Source of the DNA: a virus
Lineage: Duplodnaviria > Heunggongvirae > Uroviricota > Caudoviricetes
IMG/VR virus record: IMGVR_UViG_2526164646_000014
Reading direction: 5' to 3' (one strand)
DNA: 15,256 nt
Part shown: positions 4,175-14,259 of the stretch, piece by piece
Layout: each line of letters begins with the position of its first letter
How positions within the stretch are numbered: position 1 is the stretch's first letter
Program-made: the position numbers and the translations under genes
Notes under the pieces: model-generated
The model's input: only the letters and a program-made list of their open reading frames with translations
Databases searched by the model: none
What the model was told of the DNA's origin: nothing

Positions 4175-4836
4175 CTACTATTACCAAAGAGCGACTGCAA
4201 TGGCTGGCTAACATTTCTGGCCGCGATGATATTGACGATATAGACGGCGGTGAAATTCGTGAACTGGCGCTTATCGCTCTGGCATCACTGGAAGCAGAGC
4301 CTGTAGCGGAATGCATTGTTGAAGATGGGGGCATGTGTATTGACGGGTTCGGTGAGTATGTGGGTCACTCGCTGCCTGATGGAATGCATGAGCTTTATGC
4401 TGCCCCGCGAATGCGACAACCTGATGGATGGAAAGCCGTAGCTGTAGCGTGGAAGGTGACGTTTACTCAAGTTGACCAGGAATCTAATACGTTCACTGCT
4501 ATATATTTTTACAAAGCGGAAGTTGAGCGTTGGGTACGACTGCATAAAGCATGTGATTTTCGGGCAGATATAACACCGCTTTACGCAGCGCCGGCAGTGC
4601 CGGTTGCAGTAAACGACGACATGGCTTACGCATTCCATCACGCACTGTCAGATTCATCGCTTGGCTCTGATGAAATCGAAGAAATTAAAACCGGTTTGCG
4701 TGCTGCCTTTGCCAACGTCACTATCCAACCAGAGCCGATAGTGCCGGATGAAATCGGGCCAAACGATAGTAATACGTTTGATTATGTTGATGGCTGGAAC
4801 GCCTGCCGCGCTGCCATGCTTAAGGGAGATAAATAA
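4171..4836 (+). CDS. Hypothetical phage protein (acidic, 221 aa)
   Basis: ATGA overlap with the HNH stop (4171..4174) indicates translational coupling; no motif recognised. Confidence 0.55.
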   Translation: MTTITKERLQWLANISGRDDIDDIDGGEIRELALIALASLEAEPVAECIVEDGGMCIDGFGEYVGHSLPDGMHELYAAPRMRQPDGWKAVAVAWKVTFTQVDQESNTFTAIYFYKAEVERWVRLHKACDFRADITPLYAAPAVPVAVNDDMAYAFHHALSDSSLGSDEIEEIKTGLRAAFANVTIQPEPIVPDEIGPNDSNTFDYVDGWNACRAAMLKGDK

Positions 4837-5201
4837 TGATTAATCGAACCAAACTGGAGCACATTCTCGAATATGCCAGGCAGCAGAAATGTATTGGGCA
4901 ACTTTGTAAAATTCCACCAGGAGATATGGTTGAAATCGTGGAAATGGCCATGCGTAAGGCTGGCAACTCTCCGGTAACTCTGGCTGGCTGGATAAGCTGT
5001 AGTGATGCAGTTCCTGCTGAATATTGCGATGTGATTCTTCTCGATGATCTCGGGAATGTATTCCCCGGTTCCTGGGATAAGGTTTTTTGCCCCACTCGTG
5101 GCGGGAATAAGATGGCTTTTGTGGACAAAGACGGCGTTGAAGTAGAGAGCTCAACTCACTGGATGCCGCTACCGGAACCACCGCAGGAGGTGAATCAATG
5201 A
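4836..5201 (+). CDS. DUF551-like phage protein
   Basis: TAATG overlap with the upstream gene; C-terminal ...STHWMPLPEPPQ resembles the DUF551 signature recalled from lambdoid nin regions. Confidence 0.6.
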   Translation: MINRTKLEHILEYARQQKCIGQLCKIPPGDMVEIVEMAMRKAGNSPVTLAGWISCSDAVPAEYCDVILLDDLGNVFPGSWDKVFCPTRGGNKMAFVDKDGVEVESSTHWMPLPEPPQEVNQ

Positions 5202-5281
5202 CCTGGCCTGAGGCATTCACCACGGTAGGAATTGCGATGGCGGTGGCGCTGGTGGTGTATTCGATTTGCCGTTGGGGTTAA
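5198..5281 (+). CDS. 27-aa small hydrophobic peptide (single predicted transmembrane helix)
   Basis: ATG 5198 overlaps the upstream stop (ATGA); AGGAGG at 5185..5190 with 7-nt spacing; MTWPEAFTTVGIAMAVALVVYSICRWG; intrinsic terminator follows. Too short for the supplied ORF track. Confidence 0.5.
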   Translation: MTWPEAFTTVGIAMAVALVVYSICRWG

Positions 5282-5288
5282 CAAACAA

Positions 5289-5318
5289 AAACCCCGGATT
5301 GATGGTCCGGGGTTTTTG
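5289..5318 (+). terminator. Rho-independent terminator
   Basis: Stem acccccgga / tccgggg(t) at 5292..5299 and 5306..5313 followed by TTTTT. Confidence 0.8.
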
Positions 5319-5655
5319 AAGGAAACAAAACAGAAACAGCAATTGCCGTTACCTGTTGTTACCATGGCAAGTAAACGTATCTCAGGCGAGCGCATTGCGC
5401 CGTTCTGACGCAGATAAATTAGCCTGGATAGAAGGTGCTGGCAATAAAAAATAGCGTTTTCTTATCGGTATCGGTAAGATTGCTGCGGGTGCTTGAGGCT
5501 GTCTGCCTCGGGCATGCCACTGTAAGGCAGACAGAGAAAAGCCCCAGTTAACATTACGCGTCCTGCAAGACGCTTAACATTAATCTGAGGCCCAATCTAT
5601 GTCTCACAAATGTAGGTTAGCCTCTTACGTGCCGAAAGGCAAGGAGAAGCAGGCT

Positions 5656-5811
5656 ATGAAGCAGCAAAAGGCGATGTTAATCGCCCTGATCGTCATCTGT
5701 TTAACCGTCATAGTGACGGCACTGGTAACGAGGAAAGACCTCTGCGAGGTACGAATCCGAACCGGCCAGACGGAGGTCGCTGTCTTCACAGCTTACGAAC
5801 CTGAGGAGTAA
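5656..5811 (+). CDS. hokD: Hok/Gef-family type I toxin (51 aa), HokD/RelF-like
   Basis: MKQQKAMLIALIVICLTVIVTALVTRKDLCEVRIRTGQTEVAVFTAYEPEE matches the Hok architecture (TM helix then conserved C..R..G..EVA.F.AYE); SD aaggag at 5641..5646, 9 nt before the ATG. The track ORF from 5599 is an in-frame 5' extension. Confidence 0.85.
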   Translation: MKQQKAMLIALIVICLTVIVTALVTRKDLCEVRIRTGQTEVAVFTAYEPEE

Positions 5812-6298: not shown

Positions 6299-6315
6299 TA
6301 GGTAATGACTCCAAC

Positions 6316-6819
6316 TTACTGATAGTGTTTTATGTTCAGATAATGCCCGATGACCTTGTCATGCAGCTCCACCGATTTTGAGAACGACAGTGACTTCCGT
6401 ACCAGCCTTGCCAGATGTTGTCTCAGATTCAGATTATGTCGCTCAATGCGCTGAGTGTAACGCTTGCTGATAACGTGCAGCTTTCCCTTCAGGCGTGATT
6501 CATACAGCGGCCAGCCATCCGTCATCCATACCACGACCTCAAAGGCCGACAGCAGGCTCAGAAGACGCTCCAGTGTGGCCAGAGTGCGTTCACCGAAGAC
6601 GTGCGCCACAACCGTCCTCCGTATCCTGTCATACGCGTAAAACAGCCAGCGCTGACGTGATTTAGCACCGACGTAGCCCCAATGTTCGTCCATTTCAGCG
6701 CAGACAATCACATCACTGCCCGGTTGTATGCGCGAGGTTACCGACTGCGGCCTGAGTTTTTTAAGTGACGTAAAACCGTGTTGAGGCCAACGCCCATAAT
6801 GCGTGCACTGGCGCGACAT
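6316..6819 (-). CDS. insB: IS1 InsB (fused to InsA by frameshifting to give the transposase)
   Basis: 167-aa ORF overlapping insA in the -1 frame; matches recalled InsB. Confidence 0.9.
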
Positions 6820-7013
6820 CCGACGCCATTCATGGCCATATCAATGATTTTCTGGTGCGTACCGGGCTGAGAGGCGGTGTAAGTGAACTGTAGTTGCCAT
6901 GTTTTACGGCAATGAGAGCAGAGATAGCGCTGATGTCCGGCAGTGCTTTTGCCGTTACGCACCACGCCTTCAGTAGCGGAGCAGGAAGGACATCTGATGG
7001 AAATGGAAGCCAC
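6738..7013 (-). CDS. insA: IS1 InsA
   Basis: [42 protein letters not shown]... (91 aa). Confidence 0.9.
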
Positions 7014-7146
7014 GCAAGCACCTTAAAATCACCATCATACACTAAATCAGTAAGTTGGCAGCATTACCCTGTTAGTATTGGCATTAATTCTGGTATACTA
7101 CATAACGGGCTGAACACCCATTCTACTGCGCCAGCGGAGAACTACG

Positions 7147-7746: not shown

Positions 7747-8036
7747 TGGTGGATTTACGTAAAGCGGCGCGGGGGCAGATGTGCACCGTCAGAATTCCTG
7801 GCTACTGCAATCACAATCCCGAAACTTCTGTGCTGGCGCATTACAGGCTGGCGGGGACGTGCGGAACAGCGACAAAACCACACGATATGCAGGCAGCGAT
7901 TGCCTGTAGCTCATGCCACGATTTAATCGACGGGCGGGTAAAAACCAGCGATTACACCAAAGAAGAATTACGCCTGATGCATGCAGAAGGTGTTTTTCGC
8001 ACACAAGAAATCTGGAGAAAGGAAGGTTATTTATGA
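7746..8036 (+). CDS. DUF1364-like cysteine-rich protein (YbcO-like putative nuclease)
   Basis: 96 aa with cysteines in pairs (C..C, C...C, CSSCHD); TAATG overlap with the upstream gene. Confidence 0.6.
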   Translation: MVDLRKAARGQMCTVRIPGYCNHNPETSVLAHYRLAGTCGTATKPHDMQAAIACSSCHDLIDGRVKTSDYTKEELRLMHAEGVFRTQEIWRKEGYL

Positions 8037-8587
8037 TTTACCCAACAAATACAGGCAAAAGCGGGGAACACCTTCGTCTCACCACGCTGGAAAGTGTCTG
8101 GATTCAGGGAAAACTGCGCATGTGGGGGCGCTGGTCGTATATTGGCGGCGGTAAGACGGGAAATATGTTTAACCAGTTGCTGGCATCCAAAAAATTGACG
8201 AAAACAGCCGTCAATGAAGCCCTGCGCAGGATGAAAAAAGCGGGAATAGAGAAACCTGAGCTGGAAGCGTTTTTGCGAGAGATGATCAATGGCAAGCAAA
8301 AGACCTGGCTGGCGCATTGTACTGATGCAGAGGCGTTATGTATTGATAGAGTCATAAGTGAGGTGCTGGCAGAGCATCCTGGATTGATTAGTGTCCTCCG
8401 GCAACGGTATGAAGGGCGGGGGATGACTAAGCGTAAAATGGCTGAATTGCTGAATGACGCACACCCTGAGTGGTGTTTCCGGACGTGCTGCAGTCGGGTA
8501 GATGTATGGCTAAATCTTGCTGAATATATGCTCTATCTACCGATGCGTGATGCATTCTCTTCCGGGGATCTAAAAACCGTTTGTTGA
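8033..8587 (+). CDS. Late-gene antiterminator Q-like protein (184 aa)
   Basis: ATGA overlap with the upstream gene; SD aaggaagg upstream of 8033; stop codon embedded in a strong promoter followed by a short leader and intrinsic terminator (the Q-qut-pR'-tR' arrangement). Track ORF from 7913 is an overlapping 5' extension. Confidence 0.6.
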   Translation: MIYPTNTGKSGEHLRLTTLESVWIQGKLRMWGRWSYIGGGKTGNMFNQLLASKKLTKTAVNEALRRMKKAGIEKPELEAFLREMINGKQKTWLAHCTDAEALCIDRVISEVLAEHPGLISVLRQRYEGRGMTKRKMAELLNDAHPEWCFRTCCSRVDVWLNLAEYMLYLPMRDAFSSGDLKTVC

Positions 8588-8613
8588 CTCAATCTGTTAT
8601 CCGGGGCTATATT
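8584..8613 (+). promoter_or_regulatory. pR'-like late promoter (TTGACT-18 bp-TATATT)
   Basis: -35 TTGACT at 8584..8589 and -10 TATATT at 8608..8613, immediately after Q. Confidence 0.5.
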
Positions 8614-8674
8614 CCTCACGCGCCAGCAAAATCTGGCGTCGGGATTGGCGTCCCGGATGTTTACGGAGCGATAT

Positions 8675-8697
8675 GAGACGCGCCCGCGTCTTTTTTC
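8675..8697 (+). terminator. tR'-like intrinsic terminator
   Basis: gacgc-gccc-gcgtc hairpin (8677..8690) followed by TTTTTT (8691..8696). Confidence 0.75.
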
Positions 8698-8974
8698 ATA
8701 TCGTTTGCACAGTCACATTCGCGATTTATGGCGGGCTGTGTGGGGGAGCCGAAAGGCTCGCCGGTTTCCGTACCCGGTTACGCCAACCCTGCACAGTTCG
8801 CCACCAGTTCGATTGGCGTCGTCGGTGGCGATAATTTCCAAATGTACGGAGTTATCGTTATGACCACTCAAATCTCTGTTGAAACTCTCTCCCCGATCAC
8901 CCATAACCAGTGAGGTAGCCTGAGTTTAACGGACACTCCTTCCTGAAATAGAATGGCATCAGAAGGAGCTAATA

Positions 8975-9277
8975 ATGAGCAGAAAAACCCAACGTTACTC
9001 TAAAGAGTTCAAAGCCGAAGCTGTCAGAACGGTTCTTGAAAATCAACTTTCGATCAGTGAAGGCGCTTCCCGATTATCCCTTCCTGAAGACACTTTAGGA
9101 CAATGGGTTACCGCCGCCAGAAAAGGGCTCGGTACTCCTGGTTCCCGCACGGTGGCTGAACTGGAATCTGAAATTCTGCAACTGCGTAAGGCGTTAAATG
9201 AAGCTCGCCTTGAGCGAGATATATTAAAAAAAGCAACAGCGTATTTTGCACAGGAGTCGCTGAAAAATACGCGTTAA
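8975..9277 (+). CDS. IS600 OrfA (HTH plus leucine zipper)
   Basis: MSRKTQRYSKEFKAEAVRTV...LERDILKKATAYFAQESLKNTR. Confidence 0.85.
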   Translation: MSRKTQRYSKEFKAEAVRTVLENQLSISEGASRLSLPEDTLGQWVTAARKGLGTPGSRTVAELESEILQLRKALNEARLERDILKKATAYFAQESLKNTR

Positions 9278-9312
9278 TCGAACAATGGCGACAACAATTT
9301 CCCATTGAAGCG

Positions 9313-10131
9313 ATGTGTCAGGTATTTGGTGTATCCAGGAGCGGTTATTACAACTGGGTACAGCATGAACCCTCAGACAGAAAACAAAGTGATGAGCGGC
9401 TAAAACTGGAGATTAAGGTGGCACATATCCGCACTCGCGAAACATATGGAACCCGGCGGCTCCAGACGGAGCTGGCAGAGAATGGCATCATCGTTGGTCG
9501 TGACCGACTGGCACGTCTTCGTAAGGAGCTGAGGCTACGCTGTAAGCAGAAACGCAAGTTCAGAGCGACTACGAACCCGAACCACAATCTGCCAGTTGCG
9601 CCAAATCTGCTGAACCAGACGTTCGCTCCTACAGCACCAAATCAGGTCTGGGTGGCGGACCTGACGTATGTTGCCACACAGGAGGGATGGTTGTACCTCG
9701 CTGGCATCAAAGATGTTTATACGTGCGAAATTGTCGGCTACGCCATGGGAGAGCGCATGACAAAAGAGCTGACAGGTAAAGCCCTGTTTATGGCGCTCAG
9801 GAGCCAGCGCCCACCTGCCGGGCTAATCCACCACTCTGATCGAGGTTCACAGTACTGCGCATACGATTACCGGGTCATACAGGAGCAGTCTGGTCTGAAA
9901 ACATCAATGTCGCGTAAAGGTAACTGTTACGACAACGCTCCGATGGAAAGCTTCTGGGGAACGCTGAAAAATGAGAGCCTGAGCCACTATCGTTTTAATA
10001 ACCGGGATGAAGCCATCTCAGTAATACGGGAATACATTGAGATTTTCTACAATCGTCAGCGTCGTCACTCTCGTCTGGGGAATATCTCCCCGGCAGCCTT
10101 CAGGGAAAAATATCATCAGATGACTGCTTAA
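9313..10131 (+). CDS. IS600 OrfB (DDE transposase catalytic domain; expressed as OrfAB by -1 frameshift)
   Basis: 272-aa ORF in the -1 frame relative to orfA, with IS3-family DDE-region sequence (WVADLTYV..., HHSDRGSQY). Confidence 0.85.
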   Translation: MCQVFGVSRSGYYNWVQHEPSDRKQSDERLKLEIKVAHIRTRETYGTRRLQTELAENGIIVGRDRLARLRKELRLRCKQKRKFRATTNPNHNLPVAPNLLNQTFAPTAPNQVWVADLTYVATQEGWLYLAGIKDVYTCEIVGYAMGERMTKELTGKALFMALRSQRPPAGLIHHSDRGSQYCAYDYRVIQEQSGLKTSMSRKGNCYDNAPMESFWGTLKNESLSHYRFNNRDEAISVIREYIEIFYNRQRRHSRLGNISPAAFREKYHQMTA

Positions 10132-10779
10132 AAAAAGAACAAATGGTAGTGTCCGCTATTGCCAGTACACCTCACAGATTCCTGTTATTACCACCGAACT
10201 TTTGGCGCAGCTTTACGGCACTGAGCCGGTGCGTATTCGCCAGAATCATCATGAGAACAAAGTACGCTTCGTTGAAGGGAAACACTTTTTCAAAGTTGTT
10301 GGTAATGACCTTAAAGAATTGCGGGTCGCTTTAAACTACTCACAAAATCCAGTTTCACCCAAAGCCCGCTCCCTCATCCTCTGGACAGAACGAGGCGCAG
10401 CACGCCACGGCAAAATGCTCGAAACCGATCAGGCGTGGGATGTGTTCGAAAAACTGGAAGACTGCTATTTCAGTCAAAGGGATCCGTCAACGCCAGTTTC
10501 ATGCCAGAAAAGTTACGACACGCGAGTTCTCTGTTATCAGAGAGGCGGTGTCACTGTTTCCACAATTCAGTTACGGGATGATGATATTGTTATTTCCCTT
10601 GAGTCATGGCTGGAACTGGCGAGAGCCAATGGTTGGTTTGTTGTTCGCAGAGATAAACTGGTGGAAAGGTTGATGCAGCTTTAAAAAAGTTCTTGCATTT
10701 TTGCACATAAACTGCTTCAATTCCGGTAAGCTTCGCAAAGCTGTATCGCGAGGCGAATAGCAGACATGGACACTTGAAA

Positions 10780-10892: not shown

Positions 10893-10969
10893 GGCCCTTT
10901 AGCTCAGTTGGTCAGAGCGAGCGACTCATAATCGCCAGGTCGCTGGTTCAAGTCCAGCAAGGGCCACCA
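10893..10969 (+). tRNA. tRNA-Ile2 (anticodon CAU, lysidine type; formally could be Met)
   Basis: Hand-folded cloverleaf: acceptor GGCCCTT/AAGGGCC, anticodon loop CTCATAA (CAT at 10927..10929), T-loop TTCAAGT, encoded CCA; close to recalled E. coli ileX. Confidence 0.8.
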
Positions 10970-10970
10970 A

Positions 10971-11047
10971 CCACCACTAGCTCATCCGGATAGAGCATCA
11001 ACCTTCTAAGTTGACGGTGCGAGGTTCGAGTCCTCGGTGGTGGGCCA
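10971..11047 (+). tRNA. tRNA-Arg (anticodon UCU)
   Basis: Acceptor CCACCAC/GTGGTGG (unusual C1:G72), anticodon loop CTTCTAA (TCT at 11005..11007), T-arm CGAGG-TTCGAGT-CCTCG, encoded CCA. Confidence 0.75.
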
Positions 11048-11049
11048 GC

Positions 11050-11125
<76 letters not shown>

Positions 11126-11128
11126 TAT

Positions 11129-11203
<75 letters not shown>

Positions 11204-12274
11204 TGACCTTTCTTAAAGTACTCCAACCTACTGAATCCTAAGGGATACGGCTTTAAGCCTCCTTGCAGAGTTACTTACTGTAACCCACTGTGTAACCCTC
11301 TCAGGGCATACAGACATATGATTCAGCTATCCAGTAGTCACAAACTTCCAGCAGTCTACTATCTCTACCAGCGTAACGGCGTCTACTACTTCCGTCTTAG
11401 GGTCAGACAATCAAACAATGATAGAATGACCTCAATATCATTACGGACCAAGGATAGACGCACCGCTATGGCTTACTCAAGGCACATAAAGGCAGCACTC
11501 AAGGCAATACACGCAGACAGACCCAACGCTACCTACGAGGAAATGAGGGAACACCTTAAGGACATCGCTGAGTGTGAACTGTCTATGGGCCGTTCAGATC
11601 TCTTTGAGCCTGACATGAGGGATATCTACCGGGACCAATACGGAGAACTTGGTGAGAGCCTTACCGATGCTCTGGCTAGTGAGCCGCTAAGCATTGACCA
11701 GCATCGTTACATCAATGAGGCCCTGAAGGTGCTAAAAGCCTGTATGAGGCGTATCGAAGCGGGAGACAGTCAGCCTCTGATAGATTACGTCGATCTTTTT
11801 AATGATATTGATAGGCAAGATAACCAAGCAGACTCTGTGTCCCTATCTGTTAATGCTCCAGAAGTAAAACCAGAAGTTACGCCTAGCATTACCATAGCGA
11901 GCCTCTTTGAGCAATACGAAGCGGAGAACTATCAGAACTGGAAGCCTGCAACCTTAAGGGAAAACAAGGCGTCACACGCTGCGTTAATCGAAATATTCGA
12001 CCATCTGGGTCTCAATGCAGACGCTAACAGGGCTGACATGCTTAGGGTCCGTGATGTGCTCCAGCAGTTACCTAGGAACCGTAAGCAGCGCTTCAAGGAT
12101 GTCCCACTTGCTGACCTGTTGAGCCGTGAAGATAAGACAGATTGTCTGGATGTCGTTACCATCAACAACAAGTATCTTATTAAGATGGCTGCTGTCTTTA
12201 GGTGGGCTGTGCGCAATGACTTGATTAAAAAGAACATGACTGAGGGTCTGGAGCTTAAAGTCCCTCTGAAGTGG

Positions 12275-13441
<1,167 letters not shown>

Positions 13442-14259
13442 TGGAGCACCTGTGTTGTTCTGAGGTGAGCATATCACCTCTGTTCAGGTGGCCAAATTCA
13501 GTGTGCCACTTCACTCAGCGTAAAGCCTCAGGGGCCCGTAACGCCTTCTCTACGGAGCAGGTGGGGCAACTACTGGTCGCAGCTAAGGCATACTCTCAGA
13601 AGACCTCTGGTAAGCCGTATCATTATTATGTTACCGCCTTGGCTGCTATCACTGGGGCGAGACTCAATGAAATAGCCCAACTACAGGTCAAAGACGTCAG
13701 GACCACTGAGGCGGGAACCGTTTATATTCATATCAATGAAGACGATAGTAGTCTACCCGGTAAGAGCATCAAGAACGCTCATAGTGACCGCTGTGTGCCT
13801 CTGGTCGATGGGGCCTATGGTTTTATATTGGCTGACTTTATGGCGCTTGTAGAGACCCGTAGAGGCGCTGACGGTGATGACGCTATGGTGTTCGATGGTC
13901 TGCGTCTCATGAAGAACGGTTACGGTGAGCAGGTGAGTAAATGGTTTAATCGGACGTTGTTGCCTAAAGTCCTCGTAGACCGTAGCGGCTTAGCGTTTCA
14001 CTCGTTTAGACATACAGTTGCGACCCAGTTAAAACAACATGGGGTCGAGTTGGCGTATGCACAGGCGATCATGGGGCATAGTTCAGGGTCTATTACGTAC
14101 GACCGTTATGCTAAAGAGGTCGAGGTTGATAGGCTGGTCAATGTGATGGCTGATGTTTATAAGGAGACCTAGAGGAGACCATAGTCTAGGATGACACTTA
14201 CTACAGACCTGTGTGGTCATGTTTTTGACTCATAGTTTTCTCTACTTGTCAAGGATAAT

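Follow-up and report, generated by a model that had tools for sequence, protein, structure and literature searches.

An IS600-split ORF6N gene for a probable antirepressor behind an isrK/C4-type RNA leader in a decayed lambdoid prophage of Shigella flexneri

The window, by which we mean the whole 15,256-nucleotide stretch of DNA analysed here (IMG/VR virus record IMGVR_UViG_2526164646_000014), contains a lambdoid prophage of Shigella flexneri in a decayed state; behind the leader of its late operon, IS600 has inactivated a probable antirepressor gene. It is probable (we put it at roughly 0.78) that this leader carries an RNA-controlled antirepressor module of the isrK-anrP type known from Gifsy-1, the protein output of which was removed by the insertion. 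The relevant features are as follows.

8033..8587, + strand, Q-like antiterminator gene (184 aa with a PGAP-style start; a longer ORF runs from 7913)
8584..8613, + strand, promoter-like TTGACT-18-TATATT (promoter scan, 10/12 matches)
8607..8696, + strand, short leader RNA, isrK overlapping c4-a1b1, ending in the terminator at 8675-8692
8607-8659, + strand, c4-a1b1 target motif (Rfam RF03163, 52.2 bits; gathering score 46.7)
8620-8696, + strand, isrK (Rfam, 75.6 bits; gathering score 50)
8675-8692, + strand, terminator-like hairpin with T-run (tR' / isrK terminator; terminator scan)
8724..8808, + strand, C4-type antisense RNA (Rfam RF01695, 77.6 bits; gathering score 45; model positions 1-87, full)
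8812..8859, + strand, downstream target sites b2 and a2 (read from the sequence; self versus cross complementarity)
8860..8910, + strand, ORF6N gene 5' fragment, codons 1-17, the last codon being the left CAG copy
8911..10174, + strand, complete IS600 (IS3 family), 1264 bp (99.7-99.8% identity over the full length to annotated copies)
8975-9277, + strand, IS600 orfA (HTH_Tnp_1, E=2e-20)
9313-10131, + strand, IS600 orfB (rve, E=9e-26)
10175..10684, + strand, ORF6N gene 3' fragment, codons 18-185 and stop, beginning with the right CAG copy
10893..11203, + strand, four phage tRNA genes (CAU, Arg-UCU, Thr-UGU and Gly-UCC)

The inserted element was named IS600 in the original prediction, and the alignment bears this out with 99.8% identity over the full 1264 bp, the reference copies lying on virulence (pINV) plasmids of Shigella, where they are annotated as 'IS3-like element IS600 family transposase'. 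The element ends in TG...CA (TGAGGT...ACCTCA) with imperfect terminal inverted repeats, complementary at 20 of the 27 outermost positions. Its orfA and orfB lie in overlapping phases, with an A7 run (about 9226-9232) within the overlap region, and the transposase matches the NCBIfam model NF033516 (transpos_IS3) with 334 bits. A CAG duplication flanks the element, with the left copy at 8908-8910 and the right copy at 10175-10177. In an uninterrupted E. coli relative the empty site aligns as CCCATAACCAGATTCC and has one CAG only, which confirms both the 3-bp duplication and the hit on the 17th codon that had been proposed; IS600 is inserted directly after this codon (Gln, CAG). Since the first triplet of IS600 is an in-frame TGA, the leftover product is a 17-aa peptide. 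For the 3' fragment, the first in-frame start past the upstream stop is a TTG at 10202, and no obvious ribosome-binding site was seen in the sequence before it. Fusion of this fragment to IS600 orfB was considered and rejected, given that orfB ends at 10131 in a different frame and that, within IS600, the frame of the ORF6N gene is closed by a stop codon at about 10121-10123. A public gene call with a CTG start (L006, 186 aa) just begins from that stop. A full-length element of 1264 bp with a 3-bp duplication is what IS600 insertions in Shigella likewise present, and nothing about this one is unusual.

Joining 8860-8910 to 10178-10684 restores a gene of 558 nt, that is, 185 codons and a stop, one residue fewer than the 186 aa first given. 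The reconstructed protein matches the Pfam family ORF6N (PF10543, E=1.9e-19) over residues 12-96 with 70.1 bits, the gathering score being 27.8 bits, and it matches phrog_2379, 'anti-repressor', over residues 1-185 (E=1.2e-92); the profile search that had been suggested thus supports the ORF6N, antirepressor-like assignment. Its C-terminal half (residues 97-185) is matched by a PHROG of unknown function and by no Pfam family, and the NCBIfam search gave no model for this protein or for the Q-like one. To our knowledge, the antirepressor activity of ORF6N proteins has been established in few cases only. An intact protein of an E. coli prophage shares 98% identity with the reconstructed one. STM2616/AnrP of Gifsy-1 shares 56% identity with it over 184/187 residues (E=4e-65), the first 27 residues (MTTQISVETLSPITHNQIPVITTELLA) being identical in the two. 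By its position and this identity, the ORF6N gene is the orthologue of anrP. The repressor presumably targeted by its product does not lie within the window.

The gene preceding the split one encodes a protein of the Pfam family DUF1133 (E=5e-108; Phage_antitermQ is matched weakly) and of phrog_753, 'anti-termination protein Q-like' (E=1.4e-80). A protein identical to the 184-aa form was found in many Shigella-type chromosomes, and an exact-protein look-up returned no record for the 224-aa long form or for the 340-aa integrase fragment further downstream. The stop codon of the Q-like gene falls within the -35 hexamer of the following promoter. Most of the 37 distinct leaders in the alignment retain the -35 and -10 of this promoter along with the 3' half of its spacer. 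Presumably, this promoter is the equivalent of PisrK of Gifsy-1 and the pR' of the prophage. Its position suggests that Q acts on it; the same promoter core was also found behind non-Q genes in Stx phages, which counts against Q action on the promoter of the window. The split gene stands where the original prediction had placed it, immediately downstream of a Q-like gene, a promoter and a terminator. Its reading of the leader as just pR' and tR' holds for these two elements, and missed the isrK/c4-a1b1 and C4 RNAs that lie among them.

The 273 nt between the stop codon of Q and the ATG of the ORF6N gene contain matches to three Rfam families, c4-a1b1, isrK and C4 antisense RNA. In the short leader RNA, site b1 reads ATTGGCGTC and site a1 reads TTTACGGAG, and both are complementary to the loops of the C4 RNA, which has UUUCCGUAC as its loop a' and UACGCCAA as its single-stranded b'. 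Behind the C4 RNA, b2 (ATTGGCGTC) is located at about 8812-8820 (TTGGCGT) and a2 (GTACGGAG) at about 8845-8852 (GTACGGA(G)), the latter taking in the ribosome-binding site, a GGAG that precedes the ATG by 8 nt. The minimum free energy fold of the leader recovers the long C4 stem together with two inner hairpins (z = -5.5), and the C4 RNA found here matches STnc1160/'orf45' of Gifsy-1. Rfam also places isrK, c4-a1b1 and C4 ahead of the ORF6N genes of E. coli, of Gifsy-1 and of an Stx2a phage. The presence of isrK/c4-a1b1 and C4 in the leader therefore points to the ORF6N gene as the output of an RNA-controlled switch.

Leaders were gathered by aligning the 300 nt upstream of each gene together with looser patterns, a strict regular expression having recovered 20/91 loci. 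In a set of 32 distinct leaders, changes in the C4 loops are matched by changes in two target sites, of which one adjoins or overlaps the ribosome-binding site. Five b' classes were distinguished, each of which pairs with its own b1 and b2 over 7-8 nt; the complementarity of b' averages 7.2 within a leader, as against a mean of 2.9 and a maximum of 5 across leaders. The a' loop occurs in ten variants, each pairing with its own a2 over 6-9 nt beside or over the ribosome-binding site, whereas a1 pairs over just 3-8 nt in some classes, which is a weak point for the C4 model. Over the C4 RNA lies a small ORF of no fixed frame or length: it measures 14-45 aa or, as in the window, continues in frame into the ORF6N gene. 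No conserved small ORF between C4 and the ORF6N gene was found across the leaders. This inconstancy argues that the conserved unit is the RNA.

In the immI region of P1 and P7, a C4 antisense RNA controls icd-ant, the antirepressor being the regulated product. There, C4 is made from the transcript of its own target, a1/b1 precede it, and a2/b2 follow it where the first gene has its ribosome-binding site; the heteroimmunity of the two phages rests on specificity classes fixed by the loop sequences. The C4 RNA of the window belongs to the same Rfam family, with a1/b1 upstream, a2/b2 downstream and an antirepressor as output; here too C4 would come from the transcript that it targets, and the loop sequences set specificity classes. 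Different from P1/P7, no icd gene is apparent in the window, its antirepressor is an ORF6N protein, its module sits after Q in a lambdoid prophage, and an intrinsic terminator separates a1/b1 from C4, which would give a free short RNA (IsrK).

The closer counterpart is the isrK-orf45-anrP-isrJ locus of Gifsy-1 in Salmonella Typhimurium (Hershko-Shalev et al. 2016, PMC4825925). In Gifsy-1, PisrK drives transcription of anrP without its translation, IsrK supplied in trans raises anrP translation 140-fold, a processed RNA of about 80 nt (STnc1160) complementary to IsrK is reported, and expression of AnrP increases antQ mRNA, Ptac-anrP having been used in the induction assay of the phage (PMC4825925). 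The window and Gifsy-1 share the order of Q-like gene, promoter, isrK with its terminator, C4-like RNA, ORF6N gene and tRNA, and in both the Q stop and the ATG are spaced 273 nt apart. They differ in the Q family (DUF1133 in the window, phage 82-type in Gifsy-1) and in the specificity class of the a' loop and its a1/a2 targets (UUUCCGUAC in the window versus UCGGUGAU in Gifsy-1). The stop of orf45 overlaps the anrP start in Gifsy-1 (AUGA), whereas in the window an ATG at 8728 is in frame with the ORF6N gene with no stop between them, and could lengthen it by 44 codons. Unlike in Gifsy-1, no isrJ match was found after the ORF6N gene in the window, and the gene is split by IS600.

On the reading we prefer, the promoter abutting the Q gene would give a short terminated RNA (IsrK) bearing a1 and b1, and read-through transcripts, whether basal or arising via Q, would contain the C4-type RNA. 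The loop a' and the single strand b' of C4 would pair with a2 and b2 just before the antirepressor start, with a2 covering the GGAG, and through this pairing, within a transcript or between transcripts, the antirepressor would stay untranslated. Surplus IsrK, which offers the same sites as a1/b1, would act as a decoy and lift the block; it is this decoy logic of C4 and IsrK that we infer. The ORF6N protein could then oppose the prophage repressor, whereby early and Q transcription would rise and a positive loop would be closed. The present analysis itself shows IS600 with its flanking repeat, the ORF6N domain, the Rfam matches and the complementary, covarying sites; terminator read-through, activation by IsrK, the antQ response to AnrP and a processed RNA of 80 nt are borrowed from the Gifsy-1 experiments. 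With the gene ending after 17 codons at the first IS600 triplet, the switch is left without protein output, and its promoter, IsrK, C4 and target sites are all intact in the window.

The published model for Gifsy-1 invokes alternative structures within the transcript and translational coupling via orf45, with no C4-type antisense block, and the toxicity of IsrK was not relieved by constitutive STnc1160 (PMC4825925); both points speak against our preferred reading. It is possible, though we think it unlikely, that the leader of the window works by this cis-structural switch only, its resemblance to C4 reflecting ancestry without antisense function. In that case, an inactive fold would pair the middle of IsrK with the 3' part of orf45, IsrK acting in trans would displace it, and translation of orf45 would follow and carry over, by coupling, into the antirepressor gene. 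In Gifsy-1, this is backed by data from mutants and compensatory changes, by native gels and by coupling mutants (PMC4825925), and the b1/b' pairing found here is the same contact as the published helix b-I. However, the overlap of the orf45 stop with the ATG that coupling needs is seen only in two Gifsy-like leaders; elsewhere the small ORF either stops 21-90 nt short of the ATG or, as in the window, runs into the gene in frame. Moreover, a2 and b2 covary with the C4 loops in all classes, and a stable processed RNA of about 80 nt exists in Gifsy-1. A rather different proposal concerns the protein, which might bind DNA in some other role (superinfection exclusion, late-gene regulation or defence), its names having been carried over from distant relatives. 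Although the named domain match is limited to residues 12-96, the C-terminal half, residues 97-185, has no Pfam family and only a PHROG of unknown function, and NCBIfam offers no model for the protein, phrog_2379 is matched over the full protein length, and the Gifsy-1 orthologue raises antQ mRNA, the authors having induced the phage by its expression (PMC4825925). We consider such a role very unlikely.

Equally slim, in our view, is the probability that the ORF6N gene is a moron in the stx slot, accessory cargo under Q control that is expressed late and confers a host benefit or an add-on function, as the original prediction had supposed. It is true that the gene sits between a Q-like gene, with its promoter and terminator, and tRNA genes, both in the window and in the intact relative, and that a cassette with its own promoter and terminator which changes its genome position behaves like a moron. 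Against this, the family matches are all to phage transcription regulators (anti-repressor PHROGs), the orthologue AnrP is a phage regulatory protein that works on the phage's own circuit (PMC4825925), and a dedicated RNA control system travels and covaries with the gene. Through a comparison with Stx phages (933W-like, e.g. vB_EcoS_P27, and Stx2a phages such as LC616031), it was found that the leader and the first 17 codons are about 80% identical there; the promoter core is likewise shared, isrK and C4 are matched, and a gene with an ORF6N domain, annotated Ant, comes next. In contrast to the window, that ant cassette belongs to the early nin region, with ninE/dam on one side and roi/ninG on the other, and precedes Q by about 2.8 kb, while the Q-tRNA-stx slot is found apart from it, further downstream; the a' class and the C-terminal domains of the protein (121 aa, or P22_AR_C) are different as well. 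Across related phages the position is mixed: the cassette is upstream of Q in hundreds of Stx phage records, and in the relatives of the window and in Gifsy-1 it is found after Q/tR' and ahead of the lysis genes. A gene right after Q need not be toxin-like cargo, and here it is probably the antirepressor of an RNA switch of the kind characterised in Gifsy-1. The absence of Shiga toxin genes stated in the original prediction agrees with our scan, in which no Stx-like ORF was present in the window and the sizeable ORFs after 10684 were integrase pieces and IS transposase genes only.

The notion that the cargo series continues with the integrase finds no support. The homology to the intact prophage ends at 11203, the last base of tRNA-Gly, so that the four tRNA genes are the last shared part; beyond this point the intact relative carries holin, lysozyme and Rz genes. 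The CAU tRNA is assigned to Met by ARAGORN and to Ile in the annotation of the E. coli relative. The flank of the window, together with the integrase, matches the sequence after chromosomal glyU in another E. coli. The integrase was accordingly rejected as a phage gene; it belongs to a separate glyU-type island joined at the phage tRNA-Gly. This integrative element is itself interrupted by an IS.

The orphaned RNAs might still act in trans, since the promoter, IsrK and C4 are intact and leader classes, five or more for b and several for a, reassort between prophages. A class-specific 'RNA immunity', or cross-talk with co-resident or incoming lambdoid phages sharing the class, seems to us doubtful. 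If it were true, these RNAs could hold down or release the antirepressors of Stx phages, which share this b class, and IsrK, C4 and a2/b2 would constitute a three-part specificity code in lambdoid late/nin leaders, beyond Gifsy-1.

The genome of Shigella flexneri is known for IS expansion and prophage decay, and one more IS-inactivated prophage gene in it is by itself of little weight; the split gene is real but ordinary, and the switch type (IsrK/C4-AnrP) has already been described. The covarying a/b classes, the variable frame of orf45 and the Stx-phage cassette upstream of Q may be useful for re-examining the published switch and prophage cross-talk. No complete E. coli genome in the collection searched spans the IS600 junction. 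The same junctions are present in 5/6 complete chromosomes examined and also in IMG/VR contigs, and in a scan of genome contigs S. flexneri SFBU1023 was found to carry them, as was one record labelled 'E. coli'. A related leader in IMG/VR contigs carries a second, independent IS600 insertion, positioned in its isrK part.

The region 8584–10684 is an AnrP-type antirepressor gene inactivated by IS600 behind an intact IsrK/C4 RNA leader, and both this module and the decayed prophage around it are of already known kinds. After removal of IS600 and one copy of CAG, the reconstructed ORF has 558 nt and 185 codons; the 186 aa of the original prediction is one residue too many. The ORF6N domain assigned to it was recovered by profile search (Pfam, residues 12–96, E=1.9e-19), and phrog_2379 "anti-repressor" spans the whole reconstructed protein (E=1.2e-92); the absence of such a domain, which would have refuted the original prediction, is thus not what was found. 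The intact 185-aa ORF6N protein of a prophage in E. coli FDAARGOS_944 shares 98% identity with the reconstructed protein, and STM2616 (AnrP, the antirepressor of Salmonella phage Gifsy-1) shares 56%, the first 27 residues being the same. The elements of the module are as follows.

Features of the leader and the insertion in the window
8584–8613, promoter-like site TTGACT-18-TATATT (promoter scan)
8607–8659, c4-a1b1 (Rfam)
8620–8696, isrK (Rfam)
8675–8692, hairpin with T-run (terminator scan)
8724–8808, C4 antisense RNA (Rfam)
8911–10174, IS600, 1264 bp, with TG...CA ends and imperfect terminal inverted repeats

The IS600 copy codes for two proteins, one of 100 aa with HTH_Tnp_1 and one of 272 aa with an rve domain, the latter assigned to the IS3 family (NCBIfam), and is 99.7–99.8% identical over its full length to Shigella virulence-plasmid copies named "IS3-like element IS600 family transposase". 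It is flanked by CAG at 8908–8910 and 10175–10177, while the aligned uninterrupted E. coli relative reads ...CCCATAACCAGATTCC... with a single CAG; this empty site verifies the target duplication. The element lies after codon 17 of the ORF6N gene, and its first triplet is an in-frame TGA, so that the original start can yield a 17-aa peptide only. The original prediction described the insertion correctly in its element, duplication and codon position.

The Q protein is identical on many chromosomes of 4.4–4.6 Mb; the exact left IS600 junction was present in five of the six that were fetched, and both junctions in four. The same insertion occurs in three IMG/VR contigs (L045–L047), and Shigella flexneri SFBU1023 has the junction too, as does one record under the label E. 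coli; among 5426 complete E. coli genomes, no sequence spans it. This spread indicates that the insertion is an old, fixed allele of an S. flexneri lineage. A second, independent IS600 in the opposite orientation was seen in a related prophage (IMG/VR contigs L023, about 1980–2310, and L024, 1–283), lying within the a1 portion of the isrK leader, 194 nt upstream of the ORF6N start; hence one module of roughly 300 bp has been hit by IS600 on two separate occasions.

The stop codon of Q and the ATG of the ORF6N gene are 273 nt apart, and three Rfam families score above their gathering scores in this interval. The interval had been read as a pR'/tR' leader, and a promoter-like site and a terminator hairpin are indeed there; however, it also contains c4-a1b1, isrK and C4, and the 8584–8613 site and the 8675–8692 hairpin are at the same time the isrK promoter and terminator. 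The three families likewise precede ORF6N genes in the E. coli relative, Gifsy-1 and an Stx2a phage. isrK (RF01394) and c4-a1b1 (RF03163) overlap at 8607–8696 and in all three of these comparison loci, and appear to be one element described from two directions; a literature search found no paper connecting isrK with C4 or c4-a1b1.

Using the ORF6N protein as query, 80 related loci were gathered from IMG/VR, and the 300 nt preceding each gene were aligned. This left 37 different leaders, of which 32 belong to the C4 type. The single strand b' of C4 falls into five sequence classes, and in each class 7–8 nt are matched both by the cognate b1 within IsrK and by the cognate b2 that follows C4. The matches average 7.2 nt within a leader vs 2.9 nt across classes (maximum 5). 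The a' hairpin loop has about ten variants, each complementary over 6–9 nt to its own a2, which in C4-type leaders lies directly upstream of, or covers, the ribosome-binding site; in the window a2 is GUACGGAG, including GGAG 8 nt upstream of the ATG. From one prophage to another, a and b classes occur in reassorted combinations (leaders of loci L011–L090). These leaders are built like immI of P1/P7, C4 with target sites upstream and downstream. In that system, C4 RNA masks the ribosome-binding site of the gene that opens the antirepressor operon, and differences in its loops set immunity specificity.

Complementarity and covariation suggest that C4 would keep the antirepressor untranslated and that decoy sites in IsrK would relieve this block, the antirepressor protein then presumably feeding back on early and Q transcription. 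In the isrK-orf45-anrP locus of Gifsy-1, studied by Hershko-Shalev et al. (PMC4825925), anrP is transcribed from the isrK promoter without translation, and its translation rises 140-fold when IsrK is given in trans; STnc1160, of ~80 nt and complementary to IsrK, is cut from the read-through transcript; antQ mRNA increases upon AnrP expression, and the authors used AnrP for phage induction. The mechanism published there, a cis structural switch with coupling via orf45 (PMC4825925), is a live alternative for the details. The small ORF over C4 (orf45 in Gifsy-1) measures 14–45 aa depending on the leader, with no conserved reading frame; it ends 21–90 nt upstream of the gene in most leaders, overlaps the ATG in two Gifsy-like leaders only, and is fused in frame to the ORF6N gene in window-type leaders. 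Such changes of frame and length favour the RNA as the conserved unit. The orphaned RNAs of the window could conceivably still affect, in trans, further prophages that share their specificity class.

In L071, L075 and L077, the 300 nt upstream of the ORF6N start hold a different structured-looking leader with the core GGCTAATACAATACC..., which fails to align with the C4 type and may be another antisense RNA class. In the Stx2a phage locus L003, an Rfam sRNA-Xcc1 match (4764–4847, 75.7 bits) stands directly upstream of a second antirepressor gene (ORF6N + P22_AR_C, 4887–5561).

The gene had also been taken as cargo in the slot after Q, which holds for its position: the intact E. coli relative has the order Q-like gene, leader, ORF6N gene, four tRNAs, holin, lysozyme and Rz, and Gifsy-1 has Q, leader, anrP, isrJ, tRNA-Arg, gogA and holin. 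In contrast, Stx phages have the same cassette in the nin region, with ~80% identity up to and including codon 17. In vB_EcoS_P27 it lies between ninE and an Ant gene; roi, ninG, ninH and Q come next, and only after them the tRNAs and the toxin slot; in the Stx2a phage LC616031 it lies after dam, upstream of two more antirepressor genes, ninG and a 933W-type Q. The leader was found in 282 phage records, the majority from Stx-converting phages. The cassette is thus a portable regulatory unit that brings its own promoter, rather than a late-operon passenger akin to a toxin gene; the original observation is confirmed, and its interpretation is supported in part.

The four tRNAs of the window are 98.6% identical to those of the intact E. 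coli relative and are part of the prophage. The first (10893–10969) is Met (CAU) by ARAGORN and tRNA-Ile in the annotation of the 98.6%-identical E. coli locus, of the lysidine type like ileZ in Stx phages. Lysis genes are missing from the window. The integrase, by contrast, does not continue the cargo series as had been proposed. When window 11129–11320 was compared with the intact prophage (L001, 7963–8079) and the E. coli glyU locus (L004, 4972–5087), the phage tRNA-Gly(UCC) was the same as in the intact prophage to its last base, 11203, where homology ends; from 11204 the sequence is that of the chromosomal glyU (tRNA-Gly CCC) flank in E. coli 21AR0133, and this shared flank contains a site-specific integrase. 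The integrase therefore belongs to a different integrative element that meets the prophage at the tRNA, and it seems that a glyU-type island joined the prophage-borne tRNA gene by secondary-site integration or recombination. An ISEc52-like IS3 element (12267–13513, ~95% identity to ISEc52) splits the integrase into two pieces:

11318–12340, island integrase, first piece
13441–14172, island integrase, second piece

Two S. flexneri-type loci, L006 and L009, are the same apart from lacking this IS3 element, which is thus strain-specific. The prophage is a remnant that also bears IS1 and other IS copies; comparison with the intact prophage of E. coli shows IS1 as an insertion at 6301–7068, with a 70-aa ORF on one side and the DUF1367 gene on the other. 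The nin region contains a hok/sok-type toxin-antitoxin locus at 5487–5811 (Rfam sok match, 118 bits; Hok/Gef ORF, 5599–5811).
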